From assembly GCA_036677365.1 (NCBI GenBank), contig JAVBWN010000025.1, forward strand, positions 14,301 through 78,300: a stretch of 64,000 nt of DNA, given 5' to 3'. Both the position numbers and the translations under genes were made by a program. Shown in pieces: positions 38,182 through 55,572 of the stretch (position 1 is the first letter of the stretch; every line of letters begins with the position of its first letter). This DNA is from Acholeplasma sp. GTDB lineage: Bacteria; Bacillota_I; Bacilli_A; Acholeplasmatales; UBA5453. The notes below the pieces were generated by a model. The model did no database searches, had not been told where the DNA came from, and saw nothing but the letters and a program-made list of their open reading frames with translations.

Positions 38182-38184
38182 AAA

Positions 38185-39903
38185 TTAGATAATAACGACT
38201 TTGTAATTCATAATTTTACCGTACTTTTCGTTATGATAAGTACCTGTTGCTAAAGGTTTTAGTGCTTCAAAAGTATGTCTATTTTCTGAGAATTCTTTAT
38301 CGGTATAATTCTTGGTTCCTGCTACACAGAAGACAATGTTTTCAGGTGTCACTGAGATGATCTTGTAAATGAATGAACGTAATGTATCACTATCAACTTC
38401 CTGGATTGGTTCTAGTAAATTGTTGAGTGTGGTTTCTATCTTTGCAAGTCTTGATCGCGTATCGTAGTTCGTTAAGTACTCACCTTCAAGTTTTCTGATC
38501 TCGGTTTTGTTATTGTGAAGCTGCAAGGTCAGTGATTGGTATTTGCTGTTGAAATCCTCCTGGGAAAGATTAGGATTCTTCACTTGAACATCAATTAGGT
38601 TTGATATCATTCTTTCAAGCTCATCGCCTTGTGTTTGAAGCTTTTGAATCTTGATTTCAACATCGCTAACTCGAATGGTCGACTTGATGATTTTCTGTAT
38701 GTTTGGGATGATATCCTTTTCCTGTAAAAACACCTCGTTGAGCATTTTCACAGTCGCACCTTCAATCATCTCTTGGTAAGTAGCTTTAGCCTTACAGTGG
38801 GCTTTACCGTCGATGTAACCACCACATTGTTGCATAACTCTTTGAGCTGGTGTACCGTAATTCCAATAGCGTCTTTTCAAGGTTCGTCCACATTCAGAAC
38901 AAACGATAAATGCTGAGAATGGATAAGTGACATTGTACTTGGCTAGGTTCTTATCCTTTCCAACTTTTACCTTGCTACGATCCTCTCTGATCCTTTGTGC
39001 GAGGAGGAATGTTTCTCTATCGATTATTGCCTCGTGTGCATTCTCGGTATGATACATTGGAGCGAGTTCTTTATTCTTTACTTTCTTATGTGAAAGGTAA
39101 TCAACTGTCAGTGTTTTCTGCTGAACCAAATCGCCGATGTATTTTTCGTTCTTTAGGATAACTGCAACGGTGGACATACTCCACTTGGATGCACCAGCAC
39201 CCGTGGTTGCTCCTATGGATTCCATGTGTTTTGCAATCTTCATCGGTCCGATACCACTCACATACATTTGGAATATCTCACGGACGATTTTAGCTTCTTC
39301 AGGAACAACGATTAAGTTGCCACTTCGTTTGTCTTTGGTATAACCTAAGAACCTGTTGTGATTCACAATTGGAACGCTATTGTTGAAGCGCTTTTGAACA
39401 TTCCATTTGACGTTCTCGCTCACGTTTCTAGCTTCCTCTTGGGCGATGGATGACATGATGGTTAATAAGAAGTCCACCTTTGGGTCTGAGGAGTAGATGT
39501 TTTCTTTTTCAAAGAAGATCTCAACATTGATTGCTCGCATCTCTCTGATGTAGTTTAAGCAATCAACTGTGTTTCTAGCGAATCGTGAGATTGACTTCGT
39601 CATGATCAAATCGATTTCACCACGCTTTGCAGCATCCATCATATTATTGAACTGTTTTCTGTGCTTGGTGGAAGTTCCGCTGATGCCCTCGTCTGCATAG
39701 ATACCACAGAATGTCCATTCAGGGTTATTTTGAATCCTTTCGGTGTATTCGTCGGTTTGAGCGATGTAACTCGTTTTCTGTTCCTCATTATCGGTGGACA
39801 CTCGAACGTAGGCACACACACGTTTTTTGAGGTTCTTGGGTATGGTTCCTGATAAATCGAACACAGGTTTTGGTTGTATGACTCTGACTTGTTTGTTTTG
39901 CAT
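38185..39903 (-). CDS. large serine recombinase (integrase)
   Basis: 'AYVRVST' (catalytic Ser), 'DEGISG', 'KSISRFARN', recombinase domain 'LKNEKYIG...HEAII', Zn ribbon 'CSECG' and a coiled coil. Confidence 0.96.
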   Translation of the reverse strand: MQNKQVRVIQPKPVFDLSGTIPKNLKKRVCAYVRVSTDNEEQKTSYIAQTDEYTERIQNNPEWTFCGIYADEGISGTSTKHRKQFNNMMDAAKRGEIDLIMTKSISRFARNTVDCLNYIREMRAINVEIFFEKENIYSSDPKVDFLLTIMSSIAQEEARNVSENVKWNVQKRFNNSVPIVNHNRFLGYTKDKRSGNLIVVPEEAKIVREIFQMYVSGIGPMKIAKHMESIGATTGAGASKWSMSTVAVILKNEKYIGDLVQQKTLTVDYLSHKKVKNKELAPMYHTENAHEAIIDRETFLLAQRIREDRSKVKVGKDKNLAKYNVTYPFSAFIVCSECGRTLKRRYWNYGTPAQRVMQQCGGYIDGKAHCKAKATYQEMIEGATVKMLNEVFLQEKDIIPNIQKIIKSTIRVSDVEIKIQKLQTQGDELERMISNLIDVQVKNPNLSQEDFNSKYQSLTLQLHNNKTEIRKLEGEYLTNYDTRSRLAKIETTLNNLLEPIQEVDSDTLRSFIYKIISVTPENIVFCVAGTKNYTDKEFSENRHTFEALKPLATGTYHNEKYGKIMNYKVVII

Positions 39904-39917
39904 TATTTTTCCTCCTT

Positions 39918-39963
39918 GGTTAGTACATATACATCACTCTAAAAGCAATGAATAGCAAGTCAA
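39918..39963 (-). promoter_or_regulatory. class-A promoter motif, copy 1 (upstream of the integrase)
   Basis: TTGACTTGCTATTCATTGCTTTTAGAGTGATGTATATGTACTAACC followed by AAGGAGG. Confidence 0.75.
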
Positions 39964-40142
39964 TTCTCAACTATTTCATTGCTTTCTGATGTAATAAAGG
40001 TTATGTTGTATTGTTGTTTCAATCTGGACAGGATTTCTTTGTATTCACTTTCAGTGAGAAGCTTTTCCATATAAAGGTTAAAAGCTATCCTAACTGAGTA
40101 ATTGTATTTCATTTGATCGGTAACGATCGTAGCCTTATTCAT
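39960..40142 (-). CDS. small SHOCT-like protein upstream of the recombinase (candidate directionality factor)
   Basis: SHOCT-like 'LYMEKLLTESEYKEI..RLKQQY'; GAAAGG RBS. Confidence 0.6.
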   Translation of the reverse strand: MNKATIVTDQMKYNYSVRIAFNLYMEKLLTESEYKEILSRLKQQYNITFITSESNEIVEN

Positions 40143-40162
40143 TGGTATCCTTTCTAAAGGAT

Positions 40163-40250
40163 AAAAAGAAAAAAAGGAATTGCCATAGCAATCCCTAGGG
40201 AAAGTGCGTGCCTTATGAGCACTGAGTTTGTGACGCTGCCTAACCTACCA
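40163..40250 (-). ncRNA. candidate structured leader/attenuator ending in an intrinsic terminator
   Basis: Hairpin GUGCU-CAUAA-GGCAC and terminator GGGAUUGC-UAUG-GCAAUUCC-U7. G-U pairs work only on the minus strand. Confidence 0.55.
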
Positions 40251-40255
40251 ACAGT

Positions 40256-40300
40256 AGTTTATCACTAACTAAAATTTAAAACTACATGCCAGTGGCACAA
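40256..40300 (-). promoter_or_regulatory. class-B promoter, copy 1
   Basis: TTGTGCCACTGGCATG-TAGTTT-17 bp-TAAACT with extended TG. Confidence 0.65.
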
Positions 40301-40314
40301 ACGTATTGTAAGGT

Positions 40315-40911
40315 TTATAAGAAGTTAGGAATTTGAAAATTCTTTGAAATTGTACCTGCATGAATACCATGTATAATAAGGTTTTCTGACTGTGCTTTTG
40401 TAAAGTTAAACATTTCATCAAGAATAAAGAAACAACCTCCGCCATCTATGTTGTAAAATATCTTAGAGACATAATGCCGGTTATAGTAGGAAAAGAGCAT
40501 CACTTGATTCTTGTGATAGGTTTGAGTGCGCCAGAAGAAGTCAATTCTATGCTCGCTATATCTCACCAGGATGACATCATCGTTCTCTGCATTGATATTA
40601 TAAGGCAGGACTTGCTTGAGTTCATTATCTACCATCTCGTAGGTCCTAAATGCAAGCGTGTGACTAATCCTGTTCGAGAATGGATTACCGGTTATGTGAT
40701 CAATCGAAACACCATAGAACTGTGATAGCTTAATTAAATCGTGTATTCCAATCTCCCTGGAGCCATTCTCGTAATTGAGATAGCCTTGGCGGGATTTTTT
40801 TATGACGCTAGCTACCTGGGTTGTTGATAAGTTGTGTGAGACACGTAAACGCTTCAAATTCTCACAGATGAACAAATTATTAAAATCATCTTCGGTGTTT
40901 AATTTAACCAT
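40315..40911 (-). CDS. XRE-family (CI-like) repressor
   Basis: HTH 'NLKRLRVSHNLSTTQVASVIKKSRQGYLNYENGSRE..LSQFYGVSIDHI'; divergent from the cro-like gene. Confidence 0.85.
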   Translation of the reverse strand: MVKLNTEDDFNNLFICENLKRLRVSHNLSTTQVASVIKKSRQGYLNYENGSREIGIHDLIKLSQFYGVSIDHITGNPFSNRISHTLAFRTYEMVDNELKQVLPYNINAENDDVILVRYSEHRIDFFWRTQTYHKNQVMLFSYYNRHYVSKIFYNIDGGGCFFILDEMFNFTKAQSENLIIHGIHAGTISKNFQIPNFL

Positions 40912-40948
40912 GGAGGTCACCTCTTCACATTCGTATATTTTCGCAAGA

Positions 40949-41109
40949 ATGATACCACAACAAATGTTTACAAGTCAATGTTACTGATGACATTAACTAT
41001 CAATTTAATCGTAAAAATGAGGGTTTTCTGCTATTTGAAAACTCTTTTTGTTGCTGTTGTGATTTCGCTTCTCCAAGTTATTTTTTGACGGATTGCTTTC
41101 TCATATAAT
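40949..41109. promoter_or_regulatory. divergent cI/cro control region
   Basis: Minus-strand TTGACT-18-TATCAT with extended TG (40978-40949); plus-strand TATAAT at 41104; near-palindrome AATGTTA-CTGA-TGACATT at about 40977-40994. Confidence 0.55.
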
Positions 41110-41146
41110 CAAGGCACCATCGAAATTGACGAAAGGAGGAAAGCAC

Positions 41147-41440
41147 ATGCCTGTCAACGGAACAGGGAAGGTTCAAAATCGCGACCATGCCACACCACTA
41201 CCAAGGTTTTATCTGATCGAACACAGAAACAATCTGGGTTTATCGGTTGAAGAAGTATCAAGGATGTTAAATCTCTCGCACTATTACTATTACCAAATAG
41301 AAAGTGGTCGAAGGGGTCAAAAACTACCGATTCCACTCGTGTTAGAACTTATAAATGTTCTACAGATCGATGCGATCAAATTTCTAGAACTAGAAAGTGA
41401 ACATGTAAAGAAACATAACGAATTCAATCGGATGAAGTAA
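41147..41440 (+). CDS. Cro-like XRE HTH protein
   Basis: 'HRNNLGLSVEEVSRMLNLSHYYYYQIESGRR'. Start at ATG 41147 after AGGAGG. Confidence 0.85.
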   Translation: MPVNGTGKVQNRDHATPLPRFYLIEHRNNLGLSVEEVSRMLNLSHYYYYQIESGRRGQKLPIPLVLELINVLQIDAIKFLELESEHVKKHNEFNRMK

Positions 41441-41506
41441 AAAAAGACGCCAAGCTTGTATTTGGGGTACAAACCTGGCCAGTAGAAAAGCGACCGCCAT
41501 TCTACA
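41439..41506 (-). ncRNA. candidate antisense sRNA
   Basis: Minus-strand TTGTTA-16-TATAAT (41540-41513), then a GUAGAA/UUCUAC hairpin and a 12-bp stem GCCAGGUUUGUA/UACAAGCUUGGC followed by U7. Confidence 0.5.
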
Positions 41507-41558
41507 ATTCCGATTATACAACTCATTTCAAAAATAACAAACCATTGAAAGGATAAAA

Positions 41559-42479
41559 ATGGACGACAAGGGCTTTTTTCGAGAGATTATCGATATTTAT
41601 ATCCAAAGATTCGATATCAAAGAAAACACCAAGCGTTCCTACGGGAAGATGCTTGCCCAGTTCGCTGAGTTCGTTGATGGCTTGCCTAACCTACCAACCA
41701 GGCAAGATGTCATGGCTTATCGTGAACAACTAAAGTCCAGGCTAAGAGCTGCATCCGTTCAAAAACACATTGTAGTCATAAGGGGATTTTATCGATGGTA
41801 CTACATTGAAGGATTTGGACCCAATGCAGCTGAAGGTGTAAAAGGTATGAAGATTGAATCCGACTTTAAGAGAGAATCATTATCTCTTGAAGCGGCTATT
41901 AAACTATTAAACAGAGCTAAACGCTATGCGAGTAAGAGCATCATTGGAAAAAGAGATCATGCTCTGATCGCACTATTATTAACAACCGGATTAAGAACGA
42001 TTGAAGTGGAAAGAGCAGATGTGGATGATATCAGCTTCGTGGATGAAACCAAGGTGTTATACATCATGGGTAAAGGTCACGATGAGAAGGATGCGTATGT
42101 CAAACTCTCTCCAGAAGTGTATGGCTTGATTGAAGAATATTTGATCGAGCGACAAGATGAATATAAACCACTCTTCATTAATCATACGAAACCCTATCAG
42201 GGAACAAGACTAAGAACACGAATGATTAGTATGGTGGTTAAAGAAATGCTCAGAGATATCGGGATCGATGATCCCAAGTATTCTGCCCATAGCCTTAGGC
42301 ATACAGCAGCTTCTTTAGCGCTGGACTTGGGTGGAGATTTAGATGCAGCACAGCAATTAATGCGCCATAAAGACATATCTACCACGAAGATTTATGCTCA
42401 CCGATTGAGCAAAGCTAAGAATCATCTTGAGTGGCAGATAAGCACAGCGCTATTCCAAACTACCAAAAAGAAAAAGTGA
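41559..42479 (+). CDS. tyrosine recombinase (XerC/D-like)
   Basis: Catalytic set intact: 'TGLRTIE', 'GKG', 'HSLRH' and 'RHKDISTTKIY'. Confidence 0.93.
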   Translation: MDDKGFFREIIDIYIQRFDIKENTKRSYGKMLAQFAEFVDGLPNLPTRQDVMAYREQLKSRLRAASVQKHIVVIRGFYRWYYIEGFGPNAAEGVKGMKIESDFKRESLSLEAAIKLLNRAKRYASKSIIGKRDHALIALLLTTGLRTIEVERADVDDISFVDETKVLYIMGKGHDEKDAYVKLSPEVYGLIEEYLIERQDEYKPLFINHTKPYQGTRLRTRMISMVVKEMLRDIGIDDPKYSAHSLRHTAASLALDLGGDLDAAQQLMRHKDISTTKIYAHRLSKAKNHLEWQISTALFQTTKKKK

Positions 42480-42490
42480 AGGGAAAACCT

Positions 42491-43234
42491 ATGATTAGAG
42501 AGTTTGAACACAATGCCTATGGCAAAGTTCGTGCCACGATAGTGGATGACGAACCTTGCTTCAACCTGAAGGATCTCTGTCGCATGTTTGAGATTAAAAG
42601 CGTATCAGAAGTCCGGACCAAACTGAACGACACCAGTATTAAGCTTGTGAGCGTTCCCCACGATAAAACACATCAAAATATGTTCTTTGTTACCGCAGAC
42701 CACCTATCTACCATATTCTTCCAATCCAAGCGCAAAGACGCAGAAGTGATTGGTGATTGGTTGTATCGAACTGTATTACCTCAGCTCATCCGTTATGGCA
42801 TCTATCAGATAGAGGATTTTGAGAATCCAGATAAGGTAATCGAGTTCCTGGATGAGTTTCAAGAATTGAAAGTAAGAGCAAACGTCCTAGAGACCACACT
42901 CAAAATGAATACTCCAAAGATTAAAGCTATTGATAACTTATTAGGCACGACGAGTTGTGTGGATCTAGATATGGTTCATGAAGTGATTCGCTTCAAAAAT
43001 ATCGGTCGTGACGTCCTACTAAAGATTCTAAGAACTGCACATGTTTTAGATGAGCAGAACATACCGTTTCAAGACTTTTGTGATAAGAAGTATTTCAGAG
43101 TTGTTGAAGCGAAAGTGGTATCGGGTGGAACTGTTATCAAGTCAACCAAAACATACGTCTATAAAGGCGGAATTACATTCATCGAAAGGATCCTAAAAGA
43201 ATACGATGGAAACAAACAACGGAAAGAAAAATGA
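42491..43234 (+). CDS. BRO-N / KilA-C phage antirepressor
   Basis: BRO-N 'GKVRATIVDDEPCFNLKDLC' and 'WLYRTVLPQLIRYGIY'; C-terminal ANT/KilAC-like 'KTYVYKGGITFI'. Confidence 0.85.
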   Translation: MIREFEHNAYGKVRATIVDDEPCFNLKDLCRMFEIKSVSEVRTKLNDTSIKLVSVPHDKTHQNMFFVTADHLSTIFFQSKRKDAEVIGDWLYRTVLPQLIRYGIYQIEDFENPDKVIEFLDEFQELKVRANVLETTLKMNTPKIKAIDNLLGTTSCVDLDMVHEVIRFKNIGRDVLLKILRTAHVLDEQNIPFQDFCDKKYFRVVEAKVVSGGTVIKSTKTYVYKGGITFIERILKEYDGNKQRKEK

Positions 43235-43397
43235 GAATGTCTATAACATCAATGAGCTTCAAGAGATACTCCAAGTCAAAAGACCGACACTTTTAAAGTA
43301 TATCAAGACTAAGAAAATCAAAGCTTTCAAGGTTGGGAACCAATGGCGAGTCACTCAAGAACACTTAGATGAATTCATTCAAAGAAACATGAAGTAG
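43206..43397 (+). CDS. excisionase-like HTH_17 protein
   Basis: 'YNINELQEILQVKRPTLLKYIKTKKIKAFKVGNQWRVTQEHLDEFI'. Confidence 0.88.
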   Translation: METNNGKKNENVYNINELQEILQVKRPTLLKYIKTKKIKAFKVGNQWRVTQEHLDEFIQRNMK

Positions 43398-43424
43398 AGA
43401 CAACTGTTAGCTGCTTCACACTTA

Positions 43425-43510
43425 CCGATAATGCTTGTGAACAGTAATGTGAACTACACAACAAGTTACTGCGAACAATGTATCAAGTATGCGTGAAGTG
43501 GCTTTCAAGT
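43425..43510 (+). repeat. 86-bp element with 11-bp periodicity, copy 1
   Basis: Aligns without gaps to 52362-52447 (63/86 identical; first 25 bp 24/25). Confidence 0.85.
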
Positions 43511-43571
43511 GTCATTTAGTAAAAGCCCTTATTGGGCGATTTTTAACTATACCTAGGGAAAGGAATAACTC

Positions 43572-44495
43572 ATGGCACGACCATTCAAACAAGGCTTACA
43601 ATACTTTCCTCTCGACGTGAATATTTTTGAAGATGAAAAGATACAGGATCTTAATCTCGCTTTTGGTTATTTAGGTGAAATCATCTATATTAGATTGCTC
43701 TCGATGATATACGCTAATGGATATTATTTGGAAAAATCAATCGCTTCACTCGCAAGAACGCTCATGAAAAGCATCGGAGCGAACTGGACACCAAACCCAA
43801 TCGACATCGAAGAGGTCATTGTCTATTGTGGGAAAGTGGGTTTATTTAACTTCGATCTGCTTAAAGAAGATGTGATCACATCAAAATCAATTCAAAAACA
43901 GTTCATTTTATCTACCAGAAGAAGAAAGAATAACGGTCAGGATAAATACTGGTTACTGGATGAAAAAACGATGTTGGAACTCAGTATTTTTAACAAAACA
44001 TCGAAAAACATTAATGTAGACAATAATGGGGTTATTGATAACACTAATAGCGTTATTGGTAGCAATAATCATGTTAATGTAGACAATAATCGAGTTAATG
44101 TCGACAAAAGTACACAAAAGGAAAAAGAAAAGAAAAAAGAAAGAAAAATTGATAAAGAGGATAAAGAAGATAAAGGGCCGTACGGCCTCCCTAAATTACA
44201 TTTTATTACCAATTCTTTAATCAAAAACAAATACATCGATGAGTCATCACTAGATATCATCAAATTTAACATCTTGTTTGAAGATTTAATCCATGGGTAT
44301 GGTTTCGAAGATGTCTTATCAGCTGTAGACTATGTGGTTAAGTATTCTAAAAACCCTAATCCACCAATTGAGGATAAGTTCGCTTTCATGAGAGAGTCAG
44401 TTCAAACAAATTTGAAGCAATTTGAATACAGGAGGAAAACAGCTAATGAGTCATTCGAATCGTGGATTAAACGAACCCTTTTACAAGTGGATTGA
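43572..44495 (+). CDS. phage replication initiator (DUF4373 / Lin1244-like N-terminus)
   Basis: 'MARPFKQGLQYFPLDV.IFEDEKI', 'GLF..LLKEDVITSKSIQKQF' and a low-complexity linker. Confidence 0.82.
   Translation: MARPFKQGLQYFPLDVNIFEDEKIQDLNLAFGYLGEIIYIRLLSMIYANGYYLEKSIASLARTLMKSIGANWTPNPIDIEEVIVYCGKVGLFNFDLLKEDVITSKSIQKQFILSTRRRKNNGQDKYWLLDEKTMLELSIFNKTSKNINVDNNGVIDNTNSVIGSNNHVNVDNNRVNVDKSTQKEKEKKKERKIDKEDKEDKGPYGLPKLHFITNSLIKNKYIDESSLDIIKFNILFEDLIHGYGFEDVLSAVDYVVKYSKNPNPPIEDKFAFMRESVQTNLKQFEYRRKTANESFESWIKRTLLQVD
44010..44114 (+). repeat. five tandem 21-bp iteron-like repeats (putative phage origin)
   Basis: Consensus close to GTTAATGTAGACAATAATNNN at 44010, 44031, 44052, 44073 and 44094, followed by an A-rich tract. 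Confidence 0.75.
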
Positions 44496-44877
44496 TGATG
44501 TAAGAAGGGCAATGAGAAAAGAAAAAGAACTCCAGGAAAAACTAGAATTCTATAATATGAAGCTTATTGGGTACAAGGGAGTATCTTATGATTTTATTGG
44601 ATCTTCTGGTTCACGTTCATCTGGTGATAGTGAATTGTTGTTTTGGTTGGATAAGATAGTAATAATAGAAAATCAAATAAGACAAGCTAATCAAAAACTA
44701 TCGGAGTATAAACTGGTAATTAAGAAACTAAATGATATTCAGAAAACTGTTCTAGAATCCATCATCAACAATCAATGGATAGAGAAGATAAAGATTGAAA
44801 TAAAACAAAGTAGAAGTCGAGTTTATCAAATAATAGATGAAATTGTAATAAGTTGGAAAAACCAAAATAATCAGTAA
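44446..44877 (+). CDS. RinA/ArpU-like transcriptional regulator
   Basis: Coiled N-terminus, 'GVSYD..GSS' linker and sigma-4-like C-terminal HTH 'KQSRSRVYQIIDE'; located at the end of the early region. Confidence 0.6.
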   Translation: MSHSNRGLNEPFYKWIDDVRRAMRKEKELQEKLEFYNMKLIGYKGVSYDFIGSSGSRSSGDSELLFWLDKIVIIENQIRQANQKLSEYKLVIKKLNDIQKTVLESIINNQWIEKIKIEIKQSRSRVYQIIDEIVISWKNQNNQ

Positions 44878-44922
44878 ATCTCATGCCAGTATCCACGCAA
44901 ATACTGAAGAGGAGATTTATGA

Positions 44923-46017
44923 ATGTTAAAAGTTGTTGAATTATTTGCTGGAATTGGCGCTCAAGCTCAAGCTCTTAAAGATGCCAATATTGAGCACGAA
45001 ATAGTTGCGATTAGTGAAATAGATAAGTACGCATTAAAAGTTTATGAAGCTTTGCATGGAAAGCCTAACAACCTAGGGAATATTAAAGAGATCGAGGTAT
45101 TACCCACAGCTGATTTATGGACTTATTCATTTCCTTGTACTGATATATCGTTGGCTGGTCAAATGAGGGGGTTTGATCGTGATTCTGATACTGGTAGTAG
45201 TCTATTGTGGGAAGTTGAAAGATTAATAAATAATGCAGCAATCAAAGGTAATCTACCTAAATATCTACTTATGGAAAACGTAAAAAACCTTGTAAGCAAG
45301 AGGTTCATAGGATTATTTAATGAATGGAAATCATTTCTTGAGTCACATGGATATAGAAATTACTATCAAGTTCTCAACGCTAAAGATTATGGTATCCCTC
45401 AAAATAGAGAGAGAGTGTTTATGGTCAGTACACTTGATACCAAGAACTATATTTTTCCAACAAAGATAAAACTTGAAAACAAGTTAAATGATTATTTGGA
45501 AAAGCATGTTTCAGAAAAGTATTTTTTGAGCGAAAGACTTATTAGAAATCTTTCGGATACAAATGATCGTAATGGATTCATTCGAGGGAATAGATTTCGA
45601 TTACATGATGAAAATAGTGAATATGCTTACACAATTAGCACATGCCCTGGTAGTAGAGCAACTGATAACTTCATCATGGTTCCTCAAAAGACAAAACAAG
45701 GATATGCATTGGCTCATGTTGGAGATGGTATATACACCAATAGAACGCACCAAAAAAGAGGAGTTGTTCAAAAAAATATGATTCCAACACTCAAAACATC
45801 GCCAAATGACATAGGAGTAGTTGTTGATAAAGATGATCTAATATCAATTAGGAGACTGACACCTAGAGAGTGTTGGAGGTTGATGGGGTGGAATGACAAC
45901 TGTATTGATGTAGTACTTTCATCTGGAACATCGGATACACAACTATATAAAATGGCAGGAAACAGTATAGTGATTAGCTGCTTACAAAACTTGCTAATTA
46001 TGTTAATGAGAATTTAG
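44923..46017 (+). CDS. phage C5-cytosine DNA methyltransferase
   Basis: 'ELFAGIG', 'SFPCTDIS', 'MENV', 'PQNRERVF', 'RRLTPREC' and 'AGNSI'. Confidence 0.95.
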   Translation: MLKVVELFAGIGAQAQALKDANIEHEIVAISEIDKYALKVYEALHGKPNNLGNIKEIEVLPTADLWTYSFPCTDISLAGQMRGFDRDSDTGSSLLWEVERLINNAAIKGNLPKYLLMENVKNLVSKRFIGLFNEWKSFLESHGYRNYYQVLNAKDYGIPQNRERVFMVSTLDTKNYIFPTKIKLENKLNDYLEKHVSEKYFLSERLIRNLSDTNDRNGFIRGNRFRLHDENSEYAYTISTCPGSRATDNFIMVPQKTKQGYALAHVGDGIYTNRTHQKRGVVQKNMIPTLKTSPNDIGVVVDKDDLISIRRLTPRECWRLMGWNDNCIDVVLSSGTSDTQLYKMAGNSIVISCLQNLLIMLMRI

Positions 46018-46121
46018 AGTGGACAGTTTGGCTAGGAGGCTTTAAAGTTTTTTATAAATGTGGTATAATCGTAAAAAGTATATTATGTTTATAATATTCA
46101 GTGAGAAAGGGGTAAATTCTT

Positions 46122-47585
46122 ATGAAATTTGATTTAGGACAAGTGTTTACTCCAGAGATTATAGCTAAATATATGGTATCGTTACTTACTGCTAATAAAA
46201 ATTCATTTGTGCTTGATCCTTGTTTTGGTCATGGAGTCTTTATTTCCGAACTCATGCATATCGGATATAATGCTATAACTGGATATGAAATTGATCCAAC
46301 ACTATACGAAAAATTTAATGAAGTAATCTCCAGGTCAAGTAATCATATTCGTCTATATAACATGGATTTTTTAAGTATAAACGATCAATCTCATTATGAT
46401 GCAATTGTCATGAACCCACCATATGTACGGCAGGAAAAAATCAACAATCTTGATCATTTTGGCATAAATAAAGATAAATTACTTTCAGATAGTTTATTTA
46501 AAGGCTTAAAAAAGACTTCAAATTTGTATATGTATTTTATACTCAAAGCTATAGACTTATTAAGAGATAAAGGCGAATTGATTGCGATATTTCCAAGCAC
46601 TTGGATGGATGATCGAGGAAATCATTATTTTTATAGTGAAGTTACAAAATCCGCATCCATTAGAAGCATTACTAATGTTAAAGGTTTTGTATTTGGAAAA
46701 GAATATACAGTTGGTGTGTCAATAGTCAAAATTGTTAAGGAGTTAGTAAGTTATACACCTATAATTTCTAGTATAAAGTCTGTTAATGGAGAAATTGTTG
46801 AATTTGAAGAAGTCAAAGCTATAGATTTATCTAATCTAAATCATATTGCACTAAACAAAATAGCCATTATTACCCGAGGAATCACAACAGGGTACAATGA
46901 TTTTTATTTTAAATCTCAGATTAGCGACTCAAGATTATTGAAAGAAATGATAACTTCATCTAAAAGTATTACTGGATATTCTACACTTGATGCAAAAAAA
47001 GATAAATTCTTAGGTTTGAGTGATCCGGAATCTATTGAAGTTAAGAAGTATATTGAAAATACTATAAAAACAGTAATGAATGATAAAACACCTAAAACAA
47101 TATATAATATGATATCCAAAGGTGTTAATTGGCCCAATTTTGGTATCTTTGATAAGCAATGCTCTGGGATTATATTTAATTATATGATAAGAGAAAATAT
47201 GAAATTTATACTTAATGACGATTGCTTAGTAAGAGACAATTTTTATATCATTAAACCAAAACATAACAAGTTCTTAATTTTGACACTTTTAAATAACCAT
47301 TTTACATATTATAGATTAGAAAAAAGTGGTAAATTCTATGGTGGAGGCATGTTGAAATTACAAAAATATGATATTAGTGAATTATGTATCGTAAATCCAG
47401 ACATAATATCCGTAAAAGACACTAATAAATTATCAAAATTAGGTTTACAACTTATCAATATAGGTGAACAAGAAATAATTGATGAGATAACTTCAATATT
47501 GTCCAAGTATGAAGCTTTGTCTGCTATAATTATAAAGGAAGAATTGCAAAAGATTAAAAATGAGAGACTAAAAAGCGGGGTGTAA
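46122..47585 (+). CDS. amino (N6-adenine) DNA methyltransferase, Eco57I-like
   Basis: 'GQVFTP', 'LDPCFGHGVF', 'MNPPYVR' and 'NLYMYF'; own TGGTATAAT promoter upstream. Confidence 0.9.
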   Translation: MKFDLGQVFTPEIIAKYMVSLLTANKNSFVLDPCFGHGVFISELMHIGYNAITGYEIDPTLYEKFNEVISRSSNHIRLYNMDFLSINDQSHYDAIVMNPPYVRQEKINNLDHFGINKDKLLSDSLFKGLKKTSNLYMYFILKAIDLLRDKGELIAIFPSTWMDDRGNHYFYSEVTKSASIRSITNVKGFVFGKEYTVGVSIVKIVKELVSYTPIISSIKSVNGEIVEFEEVKAIDLSNLNHIALNKIAIITRGITTGYNDFYFKSQISDSRLLKEMITSSKSITGYSTLDAKKDKFLGLSDPESIEVKKYIENTIKTVMNDKTPKTIYNMISKGVNWPNFGIFDKQCSGIIFNYMIRENMKFILNDDCLVRDNFYIIKPKHNKFLILTLLNNHFTYYRLEKSGKFYGGGMLKLQKYDISELCIVNPDIISVKDTNKLSKLGLQLINIGEQEIIDEITSILSKYEALSAIIIKEELQKIKNERLKSGV

Positions 47586-47587
47586 TA

Positions 47588-48688
47588 ATGAAATTTTCTG
47601 TAGTAAGCTTATTTTCAGGTGGCGGAGGTCTTGACCTTGGTTTTAAATCGAATGATTTCAGCCTTATTTGGGCTTCTGACATTGATAAAAACGCTGTTGA
47701 AACATATAAATATAATATTGGAGATCATATACACCACGCAGATATTAATAATTATCCTATTGGTCAAATACCACATGCTGATGTTTTAATTGGTGGACCA
47801 CCATGTCAGTCTTTCTCACTTATTGGGAAAAGAAATGTCAATGATGATAGAGGAAAGTTAGTGTGGAAATATCTCGAAATATTAAAACATGTTAATCCAT
47901 ATTTTTTCGTTTTTGAGAATGTTACGGGTATTTTATCTGCAAAAGACAGTGATGGAAAAAAGGTACTTGATTCATTATTAGAGGAATTCAATGAACTTGG
48001 TTATGTTGTTAAATGGAATGTTATTAATGCAGCCGATTATGGAGTTCCACAAAGACGAAAGAGAGTCTTAGTTGTTGGTTCCAAATTGGGAGATTTCAAT
48101 TTTCCGAGTCAAACACATTCTATTGATGGGATAATATTACCTAAATATGTGTCAGTTTTAGAAGCGTTAGGAGATTTACCTATAGCAACAGTTAATAGTA
48201 AATCTCAAGAGTATAATCAGAAACCACTTAATAGTTACCAAAAACGTATTCGCGGTCATGCGAAAATAGTTACTGATCATAGTATTCCCACAACAAGTTC
48301 ATTAGATGAGTATATTATTCAACATGTTAAACCAGGTGGAAACTATATGGATATACCTAAAGATGTTGCTTCAGTTCGAATAAAAAGACTACAAGAACAA
48401 GGTGGACACACAACCTGTTATGGTAGACTTCATCCAAATGAGCCAGCATACACGATAAACACGTACTTTAATAGACCCAATGTCGGTTGTAATATACACT
48501 ACAGTTACAATAGATTAATAACTGTACGAGAAGCATTGCGCTTACAAGGGTTTCCCGATGATTATCAAATTATATCCTCTAGTAAGCAAGGAAAGAATTT
48601 AATTGTTGGGAATGCCGTACCTCCAATTTTGTCAGATGTTATTGCCAGACAAATCAAAAAGCATCTTGAGGCTAATTTATGTGGATAA
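47588..48688 (+). CDS. C5-cytosine DNA methyltransferase of the R-M cluster
   Basis: 'SLFSGGGG', 'GGPPCQSFS', 'FENV', 'PQRRKR' and 'VGNAVPP'. Confidence 0.95.
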   Translation: MKFSVVSLFSGGGGLDLGFKSNDFSLIWASDIDKNAVETYKYNIGDHIHHADINNYPIGQIPHADVLIGGPPCQSFSLIGKRNVNDDRGKLVWKYLEILKHVNPYFFVFENVTGILSAKDSDGKKVLDSLLEEFNELGYVVKWNVINAADYGVPQRRKRVLVVGSKLGDFNFPSQTHSIDGIILPKYVSVLEALGDLPIATVNSKSQEYNQKPLNSYQKRIRGHAKIVTDHSIPTTSSLDEYIIQHVKPGGNYMDIPKDVASVRIKRLQEQGGHTTCYGRLHPNEPAYTINTYFNRPNVGCNIHYSYNRLITVREALRLQGFPDDYQIISSSKQGKNLIVGNAVPPILSDVIARQIKKHLEANLCG

Positions 48689-51255
48689 ACTATTCTGATT
48701 CCGAGGTTAATATCTATCATCCTCTGTGTGAAACAGCTCTAAAGTTAGCATTAAAAGAATTACGACTTAGTGATTCATATAGTGTGATTCATCATCAATA
48801 TGCCGGATCACTTGAAATGGACTATGTTATAGAGAACAATAGTACTAAGAAAATACTTTGCGTTGTTGAAGTAAAAAGAACACCAAATGACGTACAAAGC
48901 ACTCGGTTTCAATACCAAGCGATGTCGTATATTCAGCAACTTTTTTATAGATTAGAAAAGCCATATTATTTAATTACAAATTTAGAAAAAGCTTATTCGT
49001 TTAGATATGATAATCAAAATCCTCAACCATATCAACAAATGTTATCTCCAGGTTTAATATCAATTGGAGATTTTTCAAGTTCTACTAACAGTACCGAGCA
49101 CATCAAAAAGCTTGTGAAATTTTTCAAAAAATACATATATGATGTCATGGCAGATAATTACGAATATTACCTTACACTTACAAATTTTTCAAACCTAATT
49201 GAAGACATTAAAGATAGCGATACAAGTTGGAAATCCAATATTGCAGTATTATTGTATGAGTACATAAGGGGTTCATTTTATGCTATATCAAGATTTGAGT
49301 TAAGAGACATAAGAGCCTTTAACAACAATTTGAAAAAGATCTGTTTGGAAGCTTCTAAGATAAATTTCTCACAGATTTTCAATTTTGATTATCAAAATTA
49401 TCCTGTGAATTCTGTTGTAGATAACAGATTATTAGAAAGTTTATTCAATTTTGCAAAAACGAATATAAATGGTGATTTAGTTTCAAATATTATCCATTCA
49501 GTTATCTCAGAGGGAAATGAACATAACGGTGAAGTATCAACAGATCCAGAGTTAGCTAAATTTGCTTCTTTATTAGCCAAATTGTATATTGGAGAAATAG
49601 ATGAGAGTGATTATATTTGCGACCCAGCAGCAGGTAGTGGAAATTTGCTTGAGTCTGCAATTTCGGTTTTTAATATTGAACCAAAGCAAATAATCGCAAA
49701 TGATGTAAATAGAAAATACTCCGAATTATTGAGTTTGAGATTAGGACTTTCTTTGCCTAACCTTGTGAAAATTGATAATTCACCTAAAGTATATTCTGAG
49801 AACCTGGCTGATTTAGATAAATCTTTATTCACAAACGTTAAAGTTATCTTGGTTAATCCACCATATTTAGCTGGGATTTACTCTGCGCAAAGAAAGAATG
49901 AATTAGTATTAAGCATGGAAACCAAATTAAACTTTACTTCTGAGTTGAATTTTGGACAAATGGGTTTAGAGTGTATTTTTATTGAGTATTTGACTAGAGT
50001 GTCAAGTAATAACTCAGTAATTTCATGTATCATGCCAAAGCAGCTATTGGTTTCTCGAGGACCAGAGGCAATAAAGTTTCGGGAATTCTTGTTAAACAGA
50101 TTTGGATTATCTGCAATTTTTAATTATCCTGGGTCTGGACTATTTGATTCAGTAACTAAAGACACAGTAATTCTAGTTGGCCAAAAAGGAAAAATCCCTA
50201 ACAAAGTGTCTTCAATCTCATGCTTAACTCAAATAGTCGACATTGATTCAAGCTCTATGTTTGAGTATCTTGTAACGCAGCCTGATTTACCATCAAGTTA
50301 CAGATCAATTATTCCTGGTGTAGAGGCAATGAATGTTAATAGACAAACGTTAGTTGAGAGTGTTATCGATGGATGGCGATTTATTAACACTGAGTCCATT
50401 GAAGCAATAAATTTTTGTCGTGATAATTTGTTCTCTAACGAAAAACTTATTCCATTTAATACGATTACAAATCTATTTAATTCGTATAGAGGAACGATTG
50501 GAAACTCAGGCCTTAGTGACTTACTTTTCTTTAATTCTTCACACAAATACTCTCAATTATATGAGCAATATAAATTACTAACTCAAGACGGAATTTCAGC
50601 ACTTAGAAACTCTGATTCGCTTGATCAAATGATAATTAACCAGGGAGATTCGGTCATGGTAAACTGGAATAACCCTAGCTTGAATGCTTCGATTTGTAGC
50701 GTCATAGATGATTATCTTCAAATTCCATTGAGCCCTGGCAAACAATTAAAGAAGTTAAAGAATCACATGGAGATTTCTAAAATATTAATAAAATCGACAT
50801 CAAAATTATCATCACAATATTCTATAGCGATACCAAGGGATTTACGGAGAAATGGAAGAGTCTTTTTTGCAACTGTACAAATGTATTTTTCAACGAATTT
50901 TGTCGTTATTGAAATTAGTAATTTTAGAGACGGAGTTATCATTGCAAGCTGGATTTCTTCAGTTTTCTATCAATTAATTTGTGAAATTTCATCCAAAGAT
51001 AACGAAGGAACCAGAAAGATGGAAATTGCTGATTTAGATGCTACTTACATCGTTAATCCGAATAATATAAATGATGATCTTTTTAATAGAATTTTGCACT
51101 TATCAGATAGTTTAGGATTCATTGATTTACAGAATCCAGAACCTCGTGATATTGACATATTGTGGGCTAAGTTTTTATTTCAAGATGATTGGGAGACAAA
51201 ATTAGAAAAATCAGTTGAATTGTTAAGTAATCTTGCCACAAAACGGAATTTGTAG
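48679..51255 (+). CDS. type IIG restriction endonuclease-methyltransferase fusion (BpuSI-like)
   Basis: N-terminal PD-(D/E)xK 'MDYVI...VEVKRT' with a BpuSI-like start 'YSDSEV..YHP.CE.AL'; 'DPAAGSGNLL' and 'VNPPY'. Confidence 0.8.
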   Translation: MWINYSDSEVNIYHPLCETALKLALKELRLSDSYSVIHHQYAGSLEMDYVIENNSTKKILCVVEVKRTPNDVQSTRFQYQAMSYIQQLFYRLEKPYYLITNLEKAYSFRYDNQNPQPYQQMLSPGLISIGDFSSSTNSTEHIKKLVKFFKKYIYDVMADNYEYYLTLTNFSNLIEDIKDSDTSWKSNIAVLLYEYIRGSFYAISRFELRDIRAFNNNLKKICLEASKINFSQIFNFDYQNYPVNSVVDNRLLESLFNFAKTNINGDLVSNIIHSVISEGNEHNGEVSTDPELAKFASLLAKLYIGEIDESDYICDPAAGSGNLLESAISVFNIEPKQIIANDVNRKYSELLSLRLGLSLPNLVKIDNSPKVYSENLADLDKSLFTNVKVILVNPPYLAGIYSAQRKNELVLSMETKLNFTSELNFGQMGLECIFIEYLTRVSSNNSVISCIMPKQLLVSRGPEAIKFREFLLNRFGLSAIFNYPGSGLFDSVTKDTVILVGQKGKIPNKVSSISCLTQIVDIDSSSMFEYLVTQPDLPSSYRSIIPGVEAMNVNRQTLVESVIDGWRFINTESIEAINFCRDNLFSNEKLIPFNTITNLFNSYRGTIGNSGLSDLLFFNSSHKYSQLYEQYKLLTQDGISALRNSDSLDQMIINQGDSVMVNWNNPSLNASICSVIDDYLQIPLSPGKQLKKLKNHMEISKILIKSTSKLSSQYSIAIPRDLRRNGRVFFATVQMYFSTNFVVIEISNFRDGVIIASWISSVFYQLICEISSKDNEGTRKMEIADLDATYIVNPNNINDDLFNRILHLSDSLGFIDLQNPEPRDIDILWAKFLFQDDWETKLEKSVELLSNLATKRNL

Positions 51256-51324
51256 TTGTTATCATGAATCATTGTCTGATTTTTTTACAAACCTATGGAG
51301 ATTTTATTTGATTGATGAAATTGG

Positions 51325-52350
51325 GTGATTTTTATTAAATTTAAATTTGCAAAGATATCAAAAGATATATATAGAACAACTGATGAATATTTTTTTGCGA
51401 GTAAAGATTCTATTTTTGGAATTATGCCTTACATAAAGACTGAATATGATTCACATGAAAGAACACACAATTACTATGTTGGTATGACCATAAAAGAGTG
51501 TAATACTGATGAAAACGGGCATTTACAAGTAAAAAAGGTTTTGAGACAATCAAACAAGCAATTTACTTTACACACTGAATTATTAAAAGAAGTTGTCAAT
51601 ATTGAAGCAGGATTACTTGAAAAAATATCAAAGCGTGATTTTGATGAGCTTTTCAGCGATGTTTTTGATTTTGAATACGATCCCAAGGTAACGTATATTA
51701 GATTAGCAGATTTGAACAATCGTCTTAAAAAGTACTTACTGTCTTTTGACACTTTAGTTTTGGAAGAAGATGTTATTTTTAATGCAGAGTTAAAAACAAG
51801 ACATAGACTTTTATCTCGTTTCAAAGAAGAATTAGTAAAATCCCTAAATGAAAACGAGCATTACATTGAGAAGGTATTAAAAAAATACCAAGGATTTTTA
51901 CCGTTAATAATTCCTGGTCTCGATGGTGTGGCGGAGTTTCAATATGTTATCGATAATGATGAGTTTCCCGTTAATAGAATTGATATCAAGTTTGATAATC
52001 AGGTGGATTTTCCTAATATTATTGAACTTAAAAGAGCTGACACATTACTTTTCAAGAAAAACGAATATCGAAATAACACATGCAAGTTAACTTCCGAGTT
52101 TTCGAATGCAATACAGCAGACGAATATCCAACGGAATATGATGTCTGCAAAGGAAGTTAAGCCTAGTAAAGTACTAGTGAAATCTTTTTTGCTAATTGGT
52201 AATATTGAAAAAGAGGTTGAAATGCATAGTATTAGTTCCGATATAGTTAGGCTTAATTTAAATATAGTTAGGTATAATAATAAAGACTGCGACATTATTA
52301 CTTATGATCAGTTAATTAATCGTTTACAAATGTTGTTAGACAAGAATTGA
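51325..52350 (+). CDS. Shedu (SduA/DUF4263) anti-phage nuclease
   Basis: C-terminal 'ID...IIELKRAD.LLF...YRN..LTSEFSNAIQQ...LLIG...IITYDQL'. Confidence 0.78.
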   Translation: MIFIKFKFAKISKDIYRTTDEYFFASKDSIFGIMPYIKTEYDSHERTHNYYVGMTIKECNTDENGHLQVKKVLRQSNKQFTLHTELLKEVVNIEAGLLEKISKRDFDELFSDVFDFEYDPKVTYIRLADLNNRLKKYLLSFDTLVLEEDVIFNAELKTRHRLLSRFKEELVKSLNENEHYIEKVLKKYQGFLPLIIPGLDGVAEFQYVIDNDEFPVNRIDIKFDNQVDFPNIIELKRADTLLFKKNEYRNNTCKLTSEFSNAIQQTNIQRNMMSAKEVKPSKVLVKSFLLIGNIEKEVEMHSISSDIVRLNLNIVRYNNKDCDIITYDQLINRLQMLLDKN

Positions 52351-52361
52351 AAGTATCTTTT

Positions 52362-52447
52362 CCGATAATCCTTGTGAACAGTAATGCCAACTATACGGCA
52401 AGATAATATCAATTATGTATAAAGTAGTTGTCAACTATGCTTCAAGT
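52362..52447 (+). repeat. 86-bp element with 11-bp periodicity, copy 2
   Basis: Homologous to 43425-43510. Confidence 0.85.
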
Positions 52448-52490
52448 ACTATGGCAAGAAACGTTAAAAAGCGCGACTTTACTAAGATTA

Positions 52491-52535
52491 TTGTGCCGCT
52501 GGCATGTAGACAAAAATTGACATATTTCATATACT
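52491..52535 (+). promoter_or_regulatory. class-B promoter, copy 2 (late promoter)
   Basis: TTGTGCCGCTGGCATG-TAGACA-17 bp-TATACT. Confidence 0.7.
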
Positions 52536-52578
52536 ACAATTAGCGTGGAATACTGGCTTTAGATGAAGCCTAGAAGAT

Positions 52579-52612
52579 AGGAACTCTCAAATGTGAGGGT
52601 TCCTTTTCTTTT
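52579..52612 (+). terminator. terminator in the late leader
   Basis: AGGAACTCTCA-AATG-TGAGGGTTCCT-TTTCTTTT. Confidence 0.8.
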
Positions 52613-52693
52613 GCAGAAAAAAATGTAGTATTCAACCCTTGGATAACTTCAGTTTTGAATAAAATTACTGAACCCTGAAAGGTTGGAATCGAT

Positions 52694-53212
52694 GTGCCAA
52701 AGGTACTGGATACATATCAGCAATGGGAGGCTGATGGAGTACTTGATGAAAGAATAAAAAGCATTCAAGATATGGTAGCAAGGCGGATTATCCAAAAGGA
52801 TATCGCTAAAGCCATGAACTTAAGTGAGAACACTTTGATAAAATTGAAGCGTGCTCATCCAAGGCTAAATCAAGCATTTATCAATGGTGATGATGAACTT
52901 AAGTATAAACTCATGGATGCTCTATTCCAACGTGCAGTTGGTATGGAGTATGAGGAAATACAAACCATCATTGAAGAAACACCAGCGGGGACGAAGAAGA
53001 AACTTGTTAAAACTAAGAAAAGAGCTCTTCCCGATTTTAATGCTATCAAATACTTATTAATTATTAAGTTCGGACGAGAATACAACGAACGTAAAGAAGA
53101 AATAGACATCATGCTGAAACGCATAGAAAAAGGCGAGGAAACTTGGATTAATGAACATAGTGATGAAGAAACCCTCGGAGTTGTTAATATACGAAAACAA
53201 CCCAAGAAATAA
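52694..53212 (+). CDS. phage HTH protein, terminase-small-subunit-like
   Basis: HTH 'QKDIAKAMNLSENTL' plus 'ALFQRAVGMEYEE...PDFNAIKYLL'. Confidence 0.6.
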   Translation: MPKVLDTYQQWEADGVLDERIKSIQDMVARRIIQKDIAKAMNLSENTLIKLKRAHPRLNQAFINGDDELKYKLMDALFQRAVGMEYEEIQTIIEETPAGTKKKLVKTKKRALPDFNAIKYLLIIKFGREYNERKEEIDIMLKRIEKGEETWINEHSDEETLGVVNIRKQPKK

Positions 53213-54362
53213 TGATGCTGCTGTCGATGCTGTAGCTAATAGTATCAAAGAGTTCGGATTCAAGGTTCCGATAGTGATCACCAAGGATCTAGTAATAATT
53301 GCCGGCCACACTAGGCTCAAAGCAAGCCTTAAGCTGGGATTAACAAGTGTTCCTTGTATTGTTGCTGATGACCTCACAGAAGGGCAAATTAAGGCCTTTC
53401 GTTTGGCAGATAACAAGACTGCAGAACTTGCTACCTGGGATTTCAGTAAACTAGAAGCAGAACTCTCGAATATTGATATTGATATGCTTCAGTTCGGGTT
53501 TGAAGAGTTAGAGTCAGATATTCCAGATAATGCTAGTGATGATGACTTTGATCCTTCTGATGAAATAAGTGAAACACCTTATTCTGAATTAGGGGATATT
53601 TATCTATTAGCGAATCACCGAGTCATGTGTGGTGATGCAACCAAGAAGCAAGATGTTCAAAAACTCCTGGATGGACAAAAGATTGATATGATCTTTACGG
53701 ATCCACCATACAATGTGGACTATGAAGGTACAGCTGGAAAGATTAAGAATGACAAGATAGAAGATAACAGCTTCTATCTTTTTTTATATGATGCATTTAC
53801 GAATATGTTTGAAGCAACCAAAGCTGGTGGAGCCATCTATGTATGCCATGCAGATACTGAAGGAATCAACTTTAGAAATGCGTTCAAAAATGCCGGTTTC
53901 AAACTAGCCGAGTGCTTAGTCTGGGTTAAGAATGCCTTAGTACTAGGTAGACAAGATTATCACTGGAGACACGAACCTATTCTTTACGGATGGAAGGAAG
54001 GTGCAGCGCATTACTTTATTGATGACCGCACACAAGACACCATCTGGGAATATAACAAACCCAAACGAAATGAAGACCATCCAACGATGAAACCTCTCGA
54101 GCTCTGTGGAAGAGCTATCGCGAATTCATCAAGAGTGAATGAATGCGTATTGGATTTGTTCGGTGGTTCTGGATCAACTATGATCGCATCCGATCAGCTT
54201 CAAAGGAAATCATTATCAATGGAACTCGATGAAAGATTCGTAGATGTGATTGTAAAAAGATATATAAGACACAAAGGATCAAGTGACAATTGCTATCTGA
54301 TCCGAGGTGGAAAGAAGATAGAATTAAACATAATTGATAACTTTCAGAATTTGTCTCTATAG
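53151..54362 (+). CDS. ParB-N domain / N6-N4 DNA methyltransferase fusion
   Basis: 'NNPRNND..SIKEFGFKVPI..IIAGHTR', 'FTDPPYN', 'HPTMKP' and 'LDLFGGSGST'. Confidence 0.93.
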   Translation: MNIVMKKPSELLIYENNPRNNDAAVDAVANSIKEFGFKVPIVITKDLVIIAGHTRLKASLKLGLTSVPCIVADDLTEGQIKAFRLADNKTAELATWDFSKLEAELSNIDIDMLQFGFEELESDIPDNASDDDFDPSDEISETPYSELGDIYLLANHRVMCGDATKKQDVQKLLDGQKIDMIFTDPPYNVDYEGTAGKIKNDKIEDNSFYLFLYDAFTNMFEATKAGGAIYVCHADTEGINFRNAFKNAGFKLAECLVWVKNALVLGRQDYHWRHEPILYGWKEGAAHYFIDDRTQDTIWEYNKPKRNEDHPTMKPLELCGRAIANSSRVNECVLDLFGGSGSTMIASDQLQRKSLSMELDERFVDVIVKRYIRHKGSSDNCYLIRGGKKIELNIIDNFQNLSL

Positions 54363-54380
54363 TGAGCAAAACTCGTCGAA

Positions 54381-54424: not shown

Positions 54425-54452
54425 CAATTAGGTTAGAAAAGAGGAGTTAACG

Positions 54453-55559: not shown

Positions 55560-55572
55560 AAAGATTATCAAA

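Follow-up and report, generated by a model that had tools for sequence, protein, structure and literature searches.

A 64,000-nt window of an Acholeplasma sp. genome (assembly GCA_036677365.1, contig JAVBWN010000025.1, 14,301-78,300; coordinates below are positions in this window) carries a prophage; the host genes beside it, for a patatin and a glycosyltransferase, end at 38010. The early region of this prophage is flanked by two inverted copies of a 19-nt box, each placed directly upstream of a predicted promoter that points outward. Box A (TTGTGCCACTGGCATGTAG, 40282..40300, minus strand) begins 14 nt past the stop codon of a repressor-like gene with a helix-turn-helix (HTH) domain of the HTH_3 type (40315..40920, minus; family searches), and box B (TTGTGCCGCTGGCATGTAG, 52491..52509, plus strand) precedes the late operon. 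The two copies differ at one base and contain an internal dyad, TGCC-N3-GGCA. A short leader follows each promoter and ends in an intrinsic terminator ahead of the first gene.

On the left, the transcript of the repressor-like gene heads towards box A and its terminator. The first gene past that terminator encodes a small SHOCT_2 protein (39960..40142, minus; E 2.2e-4, below the Pfam cut-off), and it is followed by a large serine recombinase, the prophage integrase according to domain and family searches (38185..39903, minus). Early genes run rightward between the boxes, from a Cro-like HTH protein (41093..41440, plus; family search) to a 143-amino-acid protein, here called u151 or the 44446 protein, which is the last conserved early product (44446..44877, plus; alignment and structure model). 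The rightward unit behind box B opens with a terS-like gene (52694..53212, plus; PHROG 309 in family searches) and a ParB-methylase gene (53151-54362, plus), continues with genes for S-adenosylmethionine synthetase and an HNH protein, and then reaches TerL (start 60159) and the portal. An original prediction for this region had called the unit a packaging operon; it does belong to the late region, but its opening genes are not packaging genes.

Promoter geometry is closely matched at the two sites. When positions are numbered from the first T of the box, the integrase side has a weak -35-like hexamer, TAGTTT (40279..40284, minus), which overlaps the last 3 nt of box A, and an extended -10, TGaTAAACT, at box positions 37-45 (40256..40264, minus), with a predicted start near 40249. 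The late side reads TAGACA, 17 bp and TATACT (52507..52535, plus), with a predicted start near 52542. The original prediction had described exactly this order of box, TAGTTT or TAGACA, 17 bp, and TAAACT or TATACT, and it placed both box copies and both terminators correctly. A consensus scan lists the late-side promoter alone (10/12 matches), the integrase-side one being too weak for it. Promoter-like matches across the region show no excess (61, against 67.2 in shuffles), and therefore a consensus match alone proves nothing.

Comparison across 8 phages reveals that the -10 hexamer occupies box positions 40-45 in all 15 promoters (for example TAAACT, TATACT, TAGACT, TATGCT, TAGAAT, TAAAAT, TAGAGT and TATAAT), with TGn at positions 37-39 in 11 of them. 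Positions 17-22 hold a -35-like hexamer of uneven quality (TAGTTT, TAGACA, TTCACA, TGGACA and others). A metagenome scan with the Cro-like protein gave 31 loci, 26 of them evaluable because they include the repressor-gene stop and enough flank; on the integrase side of each of these 26, the box is followed after 17 nt by TGA or TGT and a TAnnnT hexamer. Homologous prophages thus keep the box-promoter spacing in 15/15 promoters and 26/26 metagenome loci, as anticipated. The dyad centre lies about 43 bp before the predicted start (around -43). In our interpretation the box is bound by a protein and belongs to a sigma-A promoter that probably relies on its extended -10, because an RNA hairpin or a recombination site needs no such fixed distance.

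Two other identities for the box were rejected. It would make a poor RNA hairpin or a poor terminator for the gene upstream, since lineage 4 keeps only 3-4 pairs and side B has no U-tail; some G.U-to-A-U changes are compatible with such a hairpin, and that reading is disfavoured because it explains no fixed distance to the -10. A sigma-54 promoter was discarded by eye, as TGGCAT-N5 is followed by TTTA or CAAA, not TTGC. It is also highly improbable that the boxes are recombination sites, at which the early tyrosine recombinase would invert the 12-kb early region or where modules would be swapped. The boxes are indeed inverted around a recombinase gene (41559-42479), and the homology of relatives breaks a few bases upstream of box B. 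The early region nevertheless keeps the same orientation in 13/13 checked loci (0/13 inverted), the dyad arms measure just 4-7 bp around a 1-5 bp centre, and a fixed -10 distance would be meaningless for recombination.

The box is rare in this assembly. With up to 3 mismatches it gives 3 matches in the window, where 0.01 are expected and 0/100 shuffles reach 3, and its 16-nt core occurs at only 3 places in the entire 1.97-Mb genome, the reversed control pattern at 0. The third place (TTGTGCCCCTGGCATGTCT, 10098-10116, minus) lies antisense within a gene for a 994-amino-acid solute-binding protein and has no -10 at the box spacing. Its orthologous stretch is present, with nearly identical sequence, in 4 of 9 other genomes of the genus. 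We take this place as a look-alike outside the system, most likely a coincidence, because the coding sequence is conserved in related species.

No box-like dyad occurs in the intergenic stretch that separates the repressor-like and cro-like genes (cI-cro, 40921-41092), which has AATGTTWAC repeats of its own, and an operator of cI or Cro was rejected on these grounds. The same absence bears on a wider version of the idea, in which some phage protein would bind both boxes as a shared operator and shut the outward promoters in the lysogen. Overlap with the -35 region would let such a site block polymerase, and the boxes do flank the immunity region. Such repression remains decidedly improbable, given that the poor -35 hexamers (TAGTTT and the like) suggest promoters in need of help and that the terminators already silence both operons.

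Searches for relatives first recovered close kin. The exact box is found in viral contigs at 11 loci on 7 contigs, 4 of which carry a (-)...(+) pair 8.7-12.3 kb apart. Species-representative genomes hold 21 loci, and three of their contigs carry pairs 9.6-13.8 kb apart. At 18 of these 21 loci the flanks are homologous to side A or B, and the host labels are Acholeplasmataceae, Tenericutes or Bacillota (one short contig: Spirochaetae); three Betaproteobacteria loci have unrelated flanks and were set aside as chance matches. Five full relatives share 88-100% amino-acid identity from integrase through HTH_17 protein and differ in the cargo between u151 and box B. Identical boxes in such close kin say little. 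Among 50,697 deposited phage records there was no DNA or protein match.

Diverged phages, found by a DNA search with leader B, a u151 search and the metagenome scan, have the same gene order with proteins 30-65% identical. Their boxes are unlike those of the window yet matched within each phage: L077 carries TTATGCACTAAGCATATAG as box A and TTATGCTTTAAGCATATAG as box B, L099 carries TTGTGCTTAAAGCTTATAT and TTGTGCTAAAAGCTTGTAG, L076 carries TAGTGCTTTGCGCTAATTC and TCGTGCTTTACGCTCATGG, and L097 carries TTGTGCCACTGGCGTGTAG and TTGTGCCATTGGCTTATAG. Lineage-1 boxes take the form TTGTGCC...GGCATGTAG and lineage-2 boxes the form TTATGC...GCATATAG. Over 16 positions, box A and box B of one phage agree at 15, 13, 14, 14 and 13 positions, and at 2 in L102, whose register is offset by a 1-nt indel. 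Boxes of different phages agree on average at 8.3 of 16, and only 1 of 720 pairings, the true one, reaches the observed sum. At least 12 box variants occur, and by our own reading they share the pattern TT[GA]TGC-N5-GC[AT]T[AG]T, apart from two outliers (TAGTGC... and TTGT[AC]TACC...). Two box classes exist within one host genus (G000 and G297), and the box reader should therefore be a phage protein rather than one of the host. This concerted change points to one phage-encoded, lineage-specific DNA-binding factor, and it supports the original prediction of a single trans-acting factor shared by both promoters.

Some lineages depart from the paired arrangement. Lineage 5 (G007, G013) and G054 have the late-side copy and no partner box. 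In L018 (Acholeplasma oculi ATCC 27350), box B looks decayed: 3 nt are inserted ahead of the -35-like hexamer, and the leader is truncated. Lineage 2 has a third copy, palindromic and without a promoter, about 160 bp inside the left end of the prophage (L077 5582-5598; L078 702-718). It is flanked by ATGTGGAAACAT repeats; an insert of 4.5 kb lies between it and the integrase gene in L078.

Each box promoter feeds a terminated leader. Leader A contains a small hairpin, GUGCUCAUAAGGCAC (40208..40222, minus), and then a terminator (40163..40196, minus) made of a 9-pair stem-loop at 40196-40175 and a T-run. Leader B has a conserved block, TGGAATACTGGC, leading into a hairpin, GGCUUUAGAUGAAGCC (52546..52570, plus), and its terminator (52579..52612, plus) consists of an 11-pair stem-loop at 52579-52604 and a T-run, with a further conserved block, TTTTGCAGA-N6-TGTAGTATTCAAC, on its 3' side (52609..52636, plus). 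A terminator scan located both structures, and relatives conserve them with compensatory changes. A hairpin with a T-run follows all 15 promoters, ending at +54 to +99, and each terminator is the first met by transcripts from upstream, those of the repressor gene on the left and of the cargo genes on the right.

The late leader is strongly structured. Leader B folds better than its shuffles (z -3.96, 0/200 as good), and when 18 late leaders are aligned, 95.1% of the cells are paired, compared with 44-60% when the partners are slid. Compensatory changes affect 6/7 pairs of the terminator B stem, and an AGAAG/CUUUU extension also covaries (GC 12, AU 5). A possible long-range AUACU/AGUAU closing helix around the leader is 95.6% paired and nearly invariant, with 1/5 pairs covarying. 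The conserved parts comprise TGGA[AG]TACTGGC, the small hairpin, CUAGAA, the terminator and UUUUGCAGA-N6-UGUAGUA. Leader B has DNA matches in 52/307 genomes of the order at E<=0.01, 22 of them at E <1e-7; judged by sequence, the late leader predates the box. Rfam 15 gives 0 matches in the window at the gathering score and lacks the late leader; its sub-threshold matches fall on the terminators, with 21.2 of 50 and 20.8 of 42 bits. As an observation in its own right, the late leader (52546-52636) is an element of about 100 nt conserved across the order, more so than the gene that follows it.

From these elements we propose, with a probability of about 0.5, that the box is the site of one phage factor and that two outward promoters, each with a terminated leader, are switched together. 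The factor would be a lineage-specific, phage-encoded regulator bound just 5' of the -35 position. It would serve two promoters of the host sigma-A type, which would depend on an extended -10, have poor -35 hexamers and flank the early region. Each promoter would produce a leader of about 55-100 nt that ends in an intrinsic terminator before the first gene. The terminators would also stop transcripts from upstream, those of the repressor gene on the left and of the early and cargo genes on the right. Given the placement of the terminators and the box promoters, expression of the SHOCT-integrase and late operons would have two conditions: firing of the box promoter and passage of the terminator by polymerase that started there. 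By analogy, this resembles the lambda pR'/tR' logic, where all polymerases are blocked except those modified at the adjacent promoter. We infer that the factor acts positively and that read-through depends on it.

Placement is no proof of antitermination, since a strong activator and a leaky terminator give the same sequence picture. In that simpler account, a class-II-type activator at the box would drive both promoters, and leaky terminators would merely insulate the operons with no dedicated antitermination. This account is unlikely, though credible. A box centred near -43 and -35 hexamers of poor quality suit an activator that touches polymerase, each terminator is the first one after the upstream gene, and the Ltr proteins, the late regulators with which this system is compared below, were described as activators (PMC3753634, PMC3152322). 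Plain activation would, however, waste most of the activated transcripts at a strong hairpin and T-run present in 15/15 cases, and the late leader, at about 74% DNA identity compared with 45-57% amino-acid identity of the first gene behind it, is more conserved than insulation alone would need. With at least 12 box variants, an invariant -10 distance, a matched second copy and a conserved terminator, these phages form a clean natural data set, which makes the choice between activation and antitermination directly testable.

As far as its sequence tells, the system is a late-switch cassette of the Ltr or Q kind, unusual in its matched second copy before the integrase operon. What is known of late-gene switching in temperate phages of Gram-positive and wall-less bacteria comes mainly from the Ltr activators, whose mechanism has been left open. 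In that superfamily (RinA, ArpU, LtrA/Sigma70_r4, LtrB/DUF1492 and LtrC) the last early gene encodes a small regulator with a C-terminal sigma-4-like HTH, a fold that is modelled for the 44446 protein. Upstream of terS, the control region is exchangeable except for the short, phage-specific recognition block at its head, and reporter swaps show that the repeat block is a portable specificity module that works when fused to unrelated control regions (PMC3753634). Ltr cassettes also have a terminator between the regulator gene and terS (PMC3753634), to which the one at 52579-52612 corresponds as a terminator ahead of the first late gene. Sister phages L085-L087 carry the same late leader behind three or four TGAACC-type direct repeats, with no box; just upstream of the repeats they encode a DUF1492 protein of 135-139 amino acids (23-32 bits against a cut-off of 21.5), and DUF1492 is the LtrB family of late activators (PMC3753634). 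One of these proteins has a weak Phage_antitermQ match (E 0.0014, below the cut-off). A portable late leader behind TGAACC repeats shows the same modularity as those Ltr experiments (PMC3753634).

The differences from Ltr cassettes are also clear. Here the element is a dyad at a fixed -10 distance rather than a set of 7-nt direct repeats adjoining the regulator gene, and about 4-10 kb of variable cargo, with promoters of its own, separates the regulator gene from the site. Direct repeats do exist 5' of box B, with TGYCAACTATRC twice and TTCAAGTACTATGG once (52385..52458, plus); relatives have CAAGTGGT three or four times at that place instead (for example L041 9251-9309). Their spacing is like that of Ltr-type repeat sites, but they show no correspondence with the variable HTH end of the 44446 protein, and none lie near box A. 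No Ltr profile matches the 44446 protein. The integrase operon here has a second copy of the element at its head, unlike in phi11, where RinA was shown not to control int (PMC3152322).

Staphylococcus phage 80alpha offers a parallel in element order. Its rinA-terS region (L148 1722-1907) runs from the rinA stop through two TGGCAGT repeats, TGaTAGTGT and a terminator (1836-1859) to terS, the same order as in the window. By analogy, RinA/ArpU/LtrB-type late regulators might themselves act as Q-like, promoter-loaded processive antiterminators, with the same device gating the serine integrase operon here. This wider proposal is tentative and on balance unlikely; it arises because the box cassettes, the TGAACC/DUF1492 cassettes and 80alpha share one order of recognition block, -10, leader of about 60-100 nt, intrinsic terminator and operon. 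If true, it would explain the gap of more than 155 bp between the sequences that RinA binds and the mapped 5' end of terS, and it would tie the integrase supply to the late-gene switch in this phage group. The matched boxes themselves revive, in another phage group, an old idea refuted for phi11, that one regulator couples integrase expression to late genes. No relevant paper linking RinA or terS with antitermination turned up in the library searched.

That gap also feeds a further alternative, in which the real promoters would lie downstream of the terminators, the box would be a remote binding site, as reported for RinA, and the adjoining -10 would not work. The sequences that RinA requires lie more than 155 bp upstream of where the terS 5' end was mapped, a distance that the authors found hard to explain and took to imply something more complex than direct contact (PMC3152322). 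In phi11 and 80alpha that 5' end is itself downstream of the terminator (PMC3152322), and TGTAGTA after terminator B is invariant in 17/18 late leaders. Action at a distance is nonetheless improbable for the window: the box-to-(-10) spacing is fixed in 15/15 and 26/26 promoters, TAGTAT is lost in 4/18 leaders (3 TAGTAA, 1 TAGAGC), and the promoter scan finds none between either terminator and its first gene.

Other known switches share parts of this design. Mor and C of phage Mu, activators of the class-II type, bind dyad sites centred at about -43.5 at several promoters with poor -35 elements, so the likeness, by site layout alone, is a dyad near -43, a weak -35 and one factor for more than one promoter; the Mu promoters are not known to carry promoter-proximal terminators. 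The lambda Q element lies between -35 and -10. Both the lambdoid Q/pR'/tR' system and AlpA of P. aeruginosa combine, as the window does, a promoter-linked DNA element, a short leader and an intrinsic terminator before the genes, and AlpA controls two units of such build (10.1101/651190, PMC9371919). Q and AlpA read DNA through a C-terminal sigma-region-4-like HTH (10.1101/651190, PMC9371919), and the AlpA element, too, is between -35 and -10 (PMC9371919), whereas the box is upstream of the -35. A pause element is not consistently present here, and Q-family profiles have no match among the window proteins. GafY and GafZ of the Caulobacter gene transfer agent likewise pair a promoter activator with an antiterminator that acts past terminators (PMC11150451), but these proteins are unrelated, the GafZ element lies between -10 and -35, and IHF is involved.

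Several observations weigh against the proposed joint switch. The integrase-side -35 and -10 together match only 6/12 consensus positions, and leader A folds no better than its shuffles (z -0.79, 34/200). The -10-like pause element needed by Q and AlpA is, from the sequences compared, not universal here: in leader A a pause-like TAnnnT hexamer (GGTAGGTT or GGTAAGTT) occurs in 18/26 loci by our own reading, and in leader B the corresponding hexamer is AATACT in 11/18 and AGTACT in 7/18. The RinA-dependent 5' end of phi11 and 80alpha, downstream of the terminator, lies 23 bp before terS and was mapped with 5'-monophosphate RNA removed; rinA was first reported as an int regulator, and this was refuted for phi11 (PMC3152322). 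Four RNA-labelled runs over 37500-57499 (17 listed) consist of flat-depth contigs and give no starts, ends or levels. Two further points concern the binder: the sigma-4-like end of the 44446 protein varies among phages that are identical at both boxes, and three candidates, the HTH_17 protein, Cro and the 44446 N-terminus, have recognition helices that follow the box class.

The identity of the box reader is consequently a matter of graded likelihood. The u151 family occurs in 19/307 genomes of the order, and its 123 homologues all lack both a functional name and a Pfam domain. The family is near-invariant over roughly the first 78 residues (VRRAMRKEKELQEKL is fixed) and hypervariable over roughly the last 60. 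A structure model (mean predicted confidence, pLDDT, 83) shows a long helical hairpin followed by a three-helix HTH. The 44446 protein has no Pfam, NCBIfam or PHROG match, and a Foldseek search with its model returned nothing at E<=0.001, the weak top rows being sigma factors. A wide structural search aligned residues 58-143 with sigma region 4 at middling Z scores of 8-9.6, with the same family down the list; the best match was 3mzy_A (Z 9.6, root-mean-square deviation 1.6, 69 aligned). The nearest Atlas clusters in a language-model search are DUF1492, DUF722 and Sigma70_r4 phage proteins (0.95), and hhalign against the sister-phage DUF1492 proteins gave a weak match (probability 10%, E 0.0032, 71 columns). 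The description of this protein as RinA/ArpU-like was borne out for its architecture, gene position and modelled sigma-region-4 fold, but no profile places it in any of these families; the label "Ltr/RinA-like" seems fair for architecture and gene position, not as family membership.

Its proposed role as box reader fares worse, because the HTH end differs among phages with identical boxes. Ltr proteins read DNA with their C-terminal end (PMC3753634), and this precedent, together with the variable C-terminus, speaks against that end reading the box. Pairing the variable end with promoter spacers or with the upstream repeats gave no consistent result. Naming the binder by covariation was dropped as well, given that the box class goes hand in hand with the HTH_17 protein, with Cro and with the 44446 N-terminus; the early module is inherited as a block, which makes these candidates inseparable by covariation. 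Cro and the repressor seem less probable as binders, given that the box is missing from their own control region. The HTH_17 protein (43206..43397, plus; 63 amino acids, family searches), a candidate box binder, seems to have a small edge because it belongs to the excisionase family and because the third box copy of lineage 2 lies near the prophage left end. In a rough split, the HTH_17 protein and some other protein are each tentative choices of equal standing, and the Ltr-like 44446 protein is a slightly less probable one.

The remaining early genes complete the map. A tyrosine recombinase gene (41559-42479, plus; family search) sits in the early operon although the prophage already has a large serine integrase. 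An Ant protein gene lies between the tyrosine recombinase and HTH_17 genes, and a Lin1244-type replication protein gene between the HTH_17 gene and that of the 44446 protein, both on the plus strand. Behind them, a variable cargo block (44923..52350, plus) encodes two C5 methylases, an N6 methylase, a BpuSI-like enzyme and a Shedu-like protein. This block is a hotspot: near-identical phages have other genes there, and homology returns a few bases before box B. The stretch from the 44446 gene to box B is thus of interest as a cargo site for methylases, restriction enzymes and Shedu-type defence genes.

Three minor features were also seen. A hairpin, AUCCUUUAGAAAGGAU (40147-40162, minus), overlies the ribosome-binding site of the SHOCT gene and may add translational control. 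One contig of run X3 fuses 39960 to 40133, which suggests a SHOCT-less variant. In the early rightward promoter, lineages 1 and 2 share TATAAT-N3/4-GGCACCA (window 41058-41075; L077 about 8545-8560), an element conserved where the cro transcript is predicted to begin.

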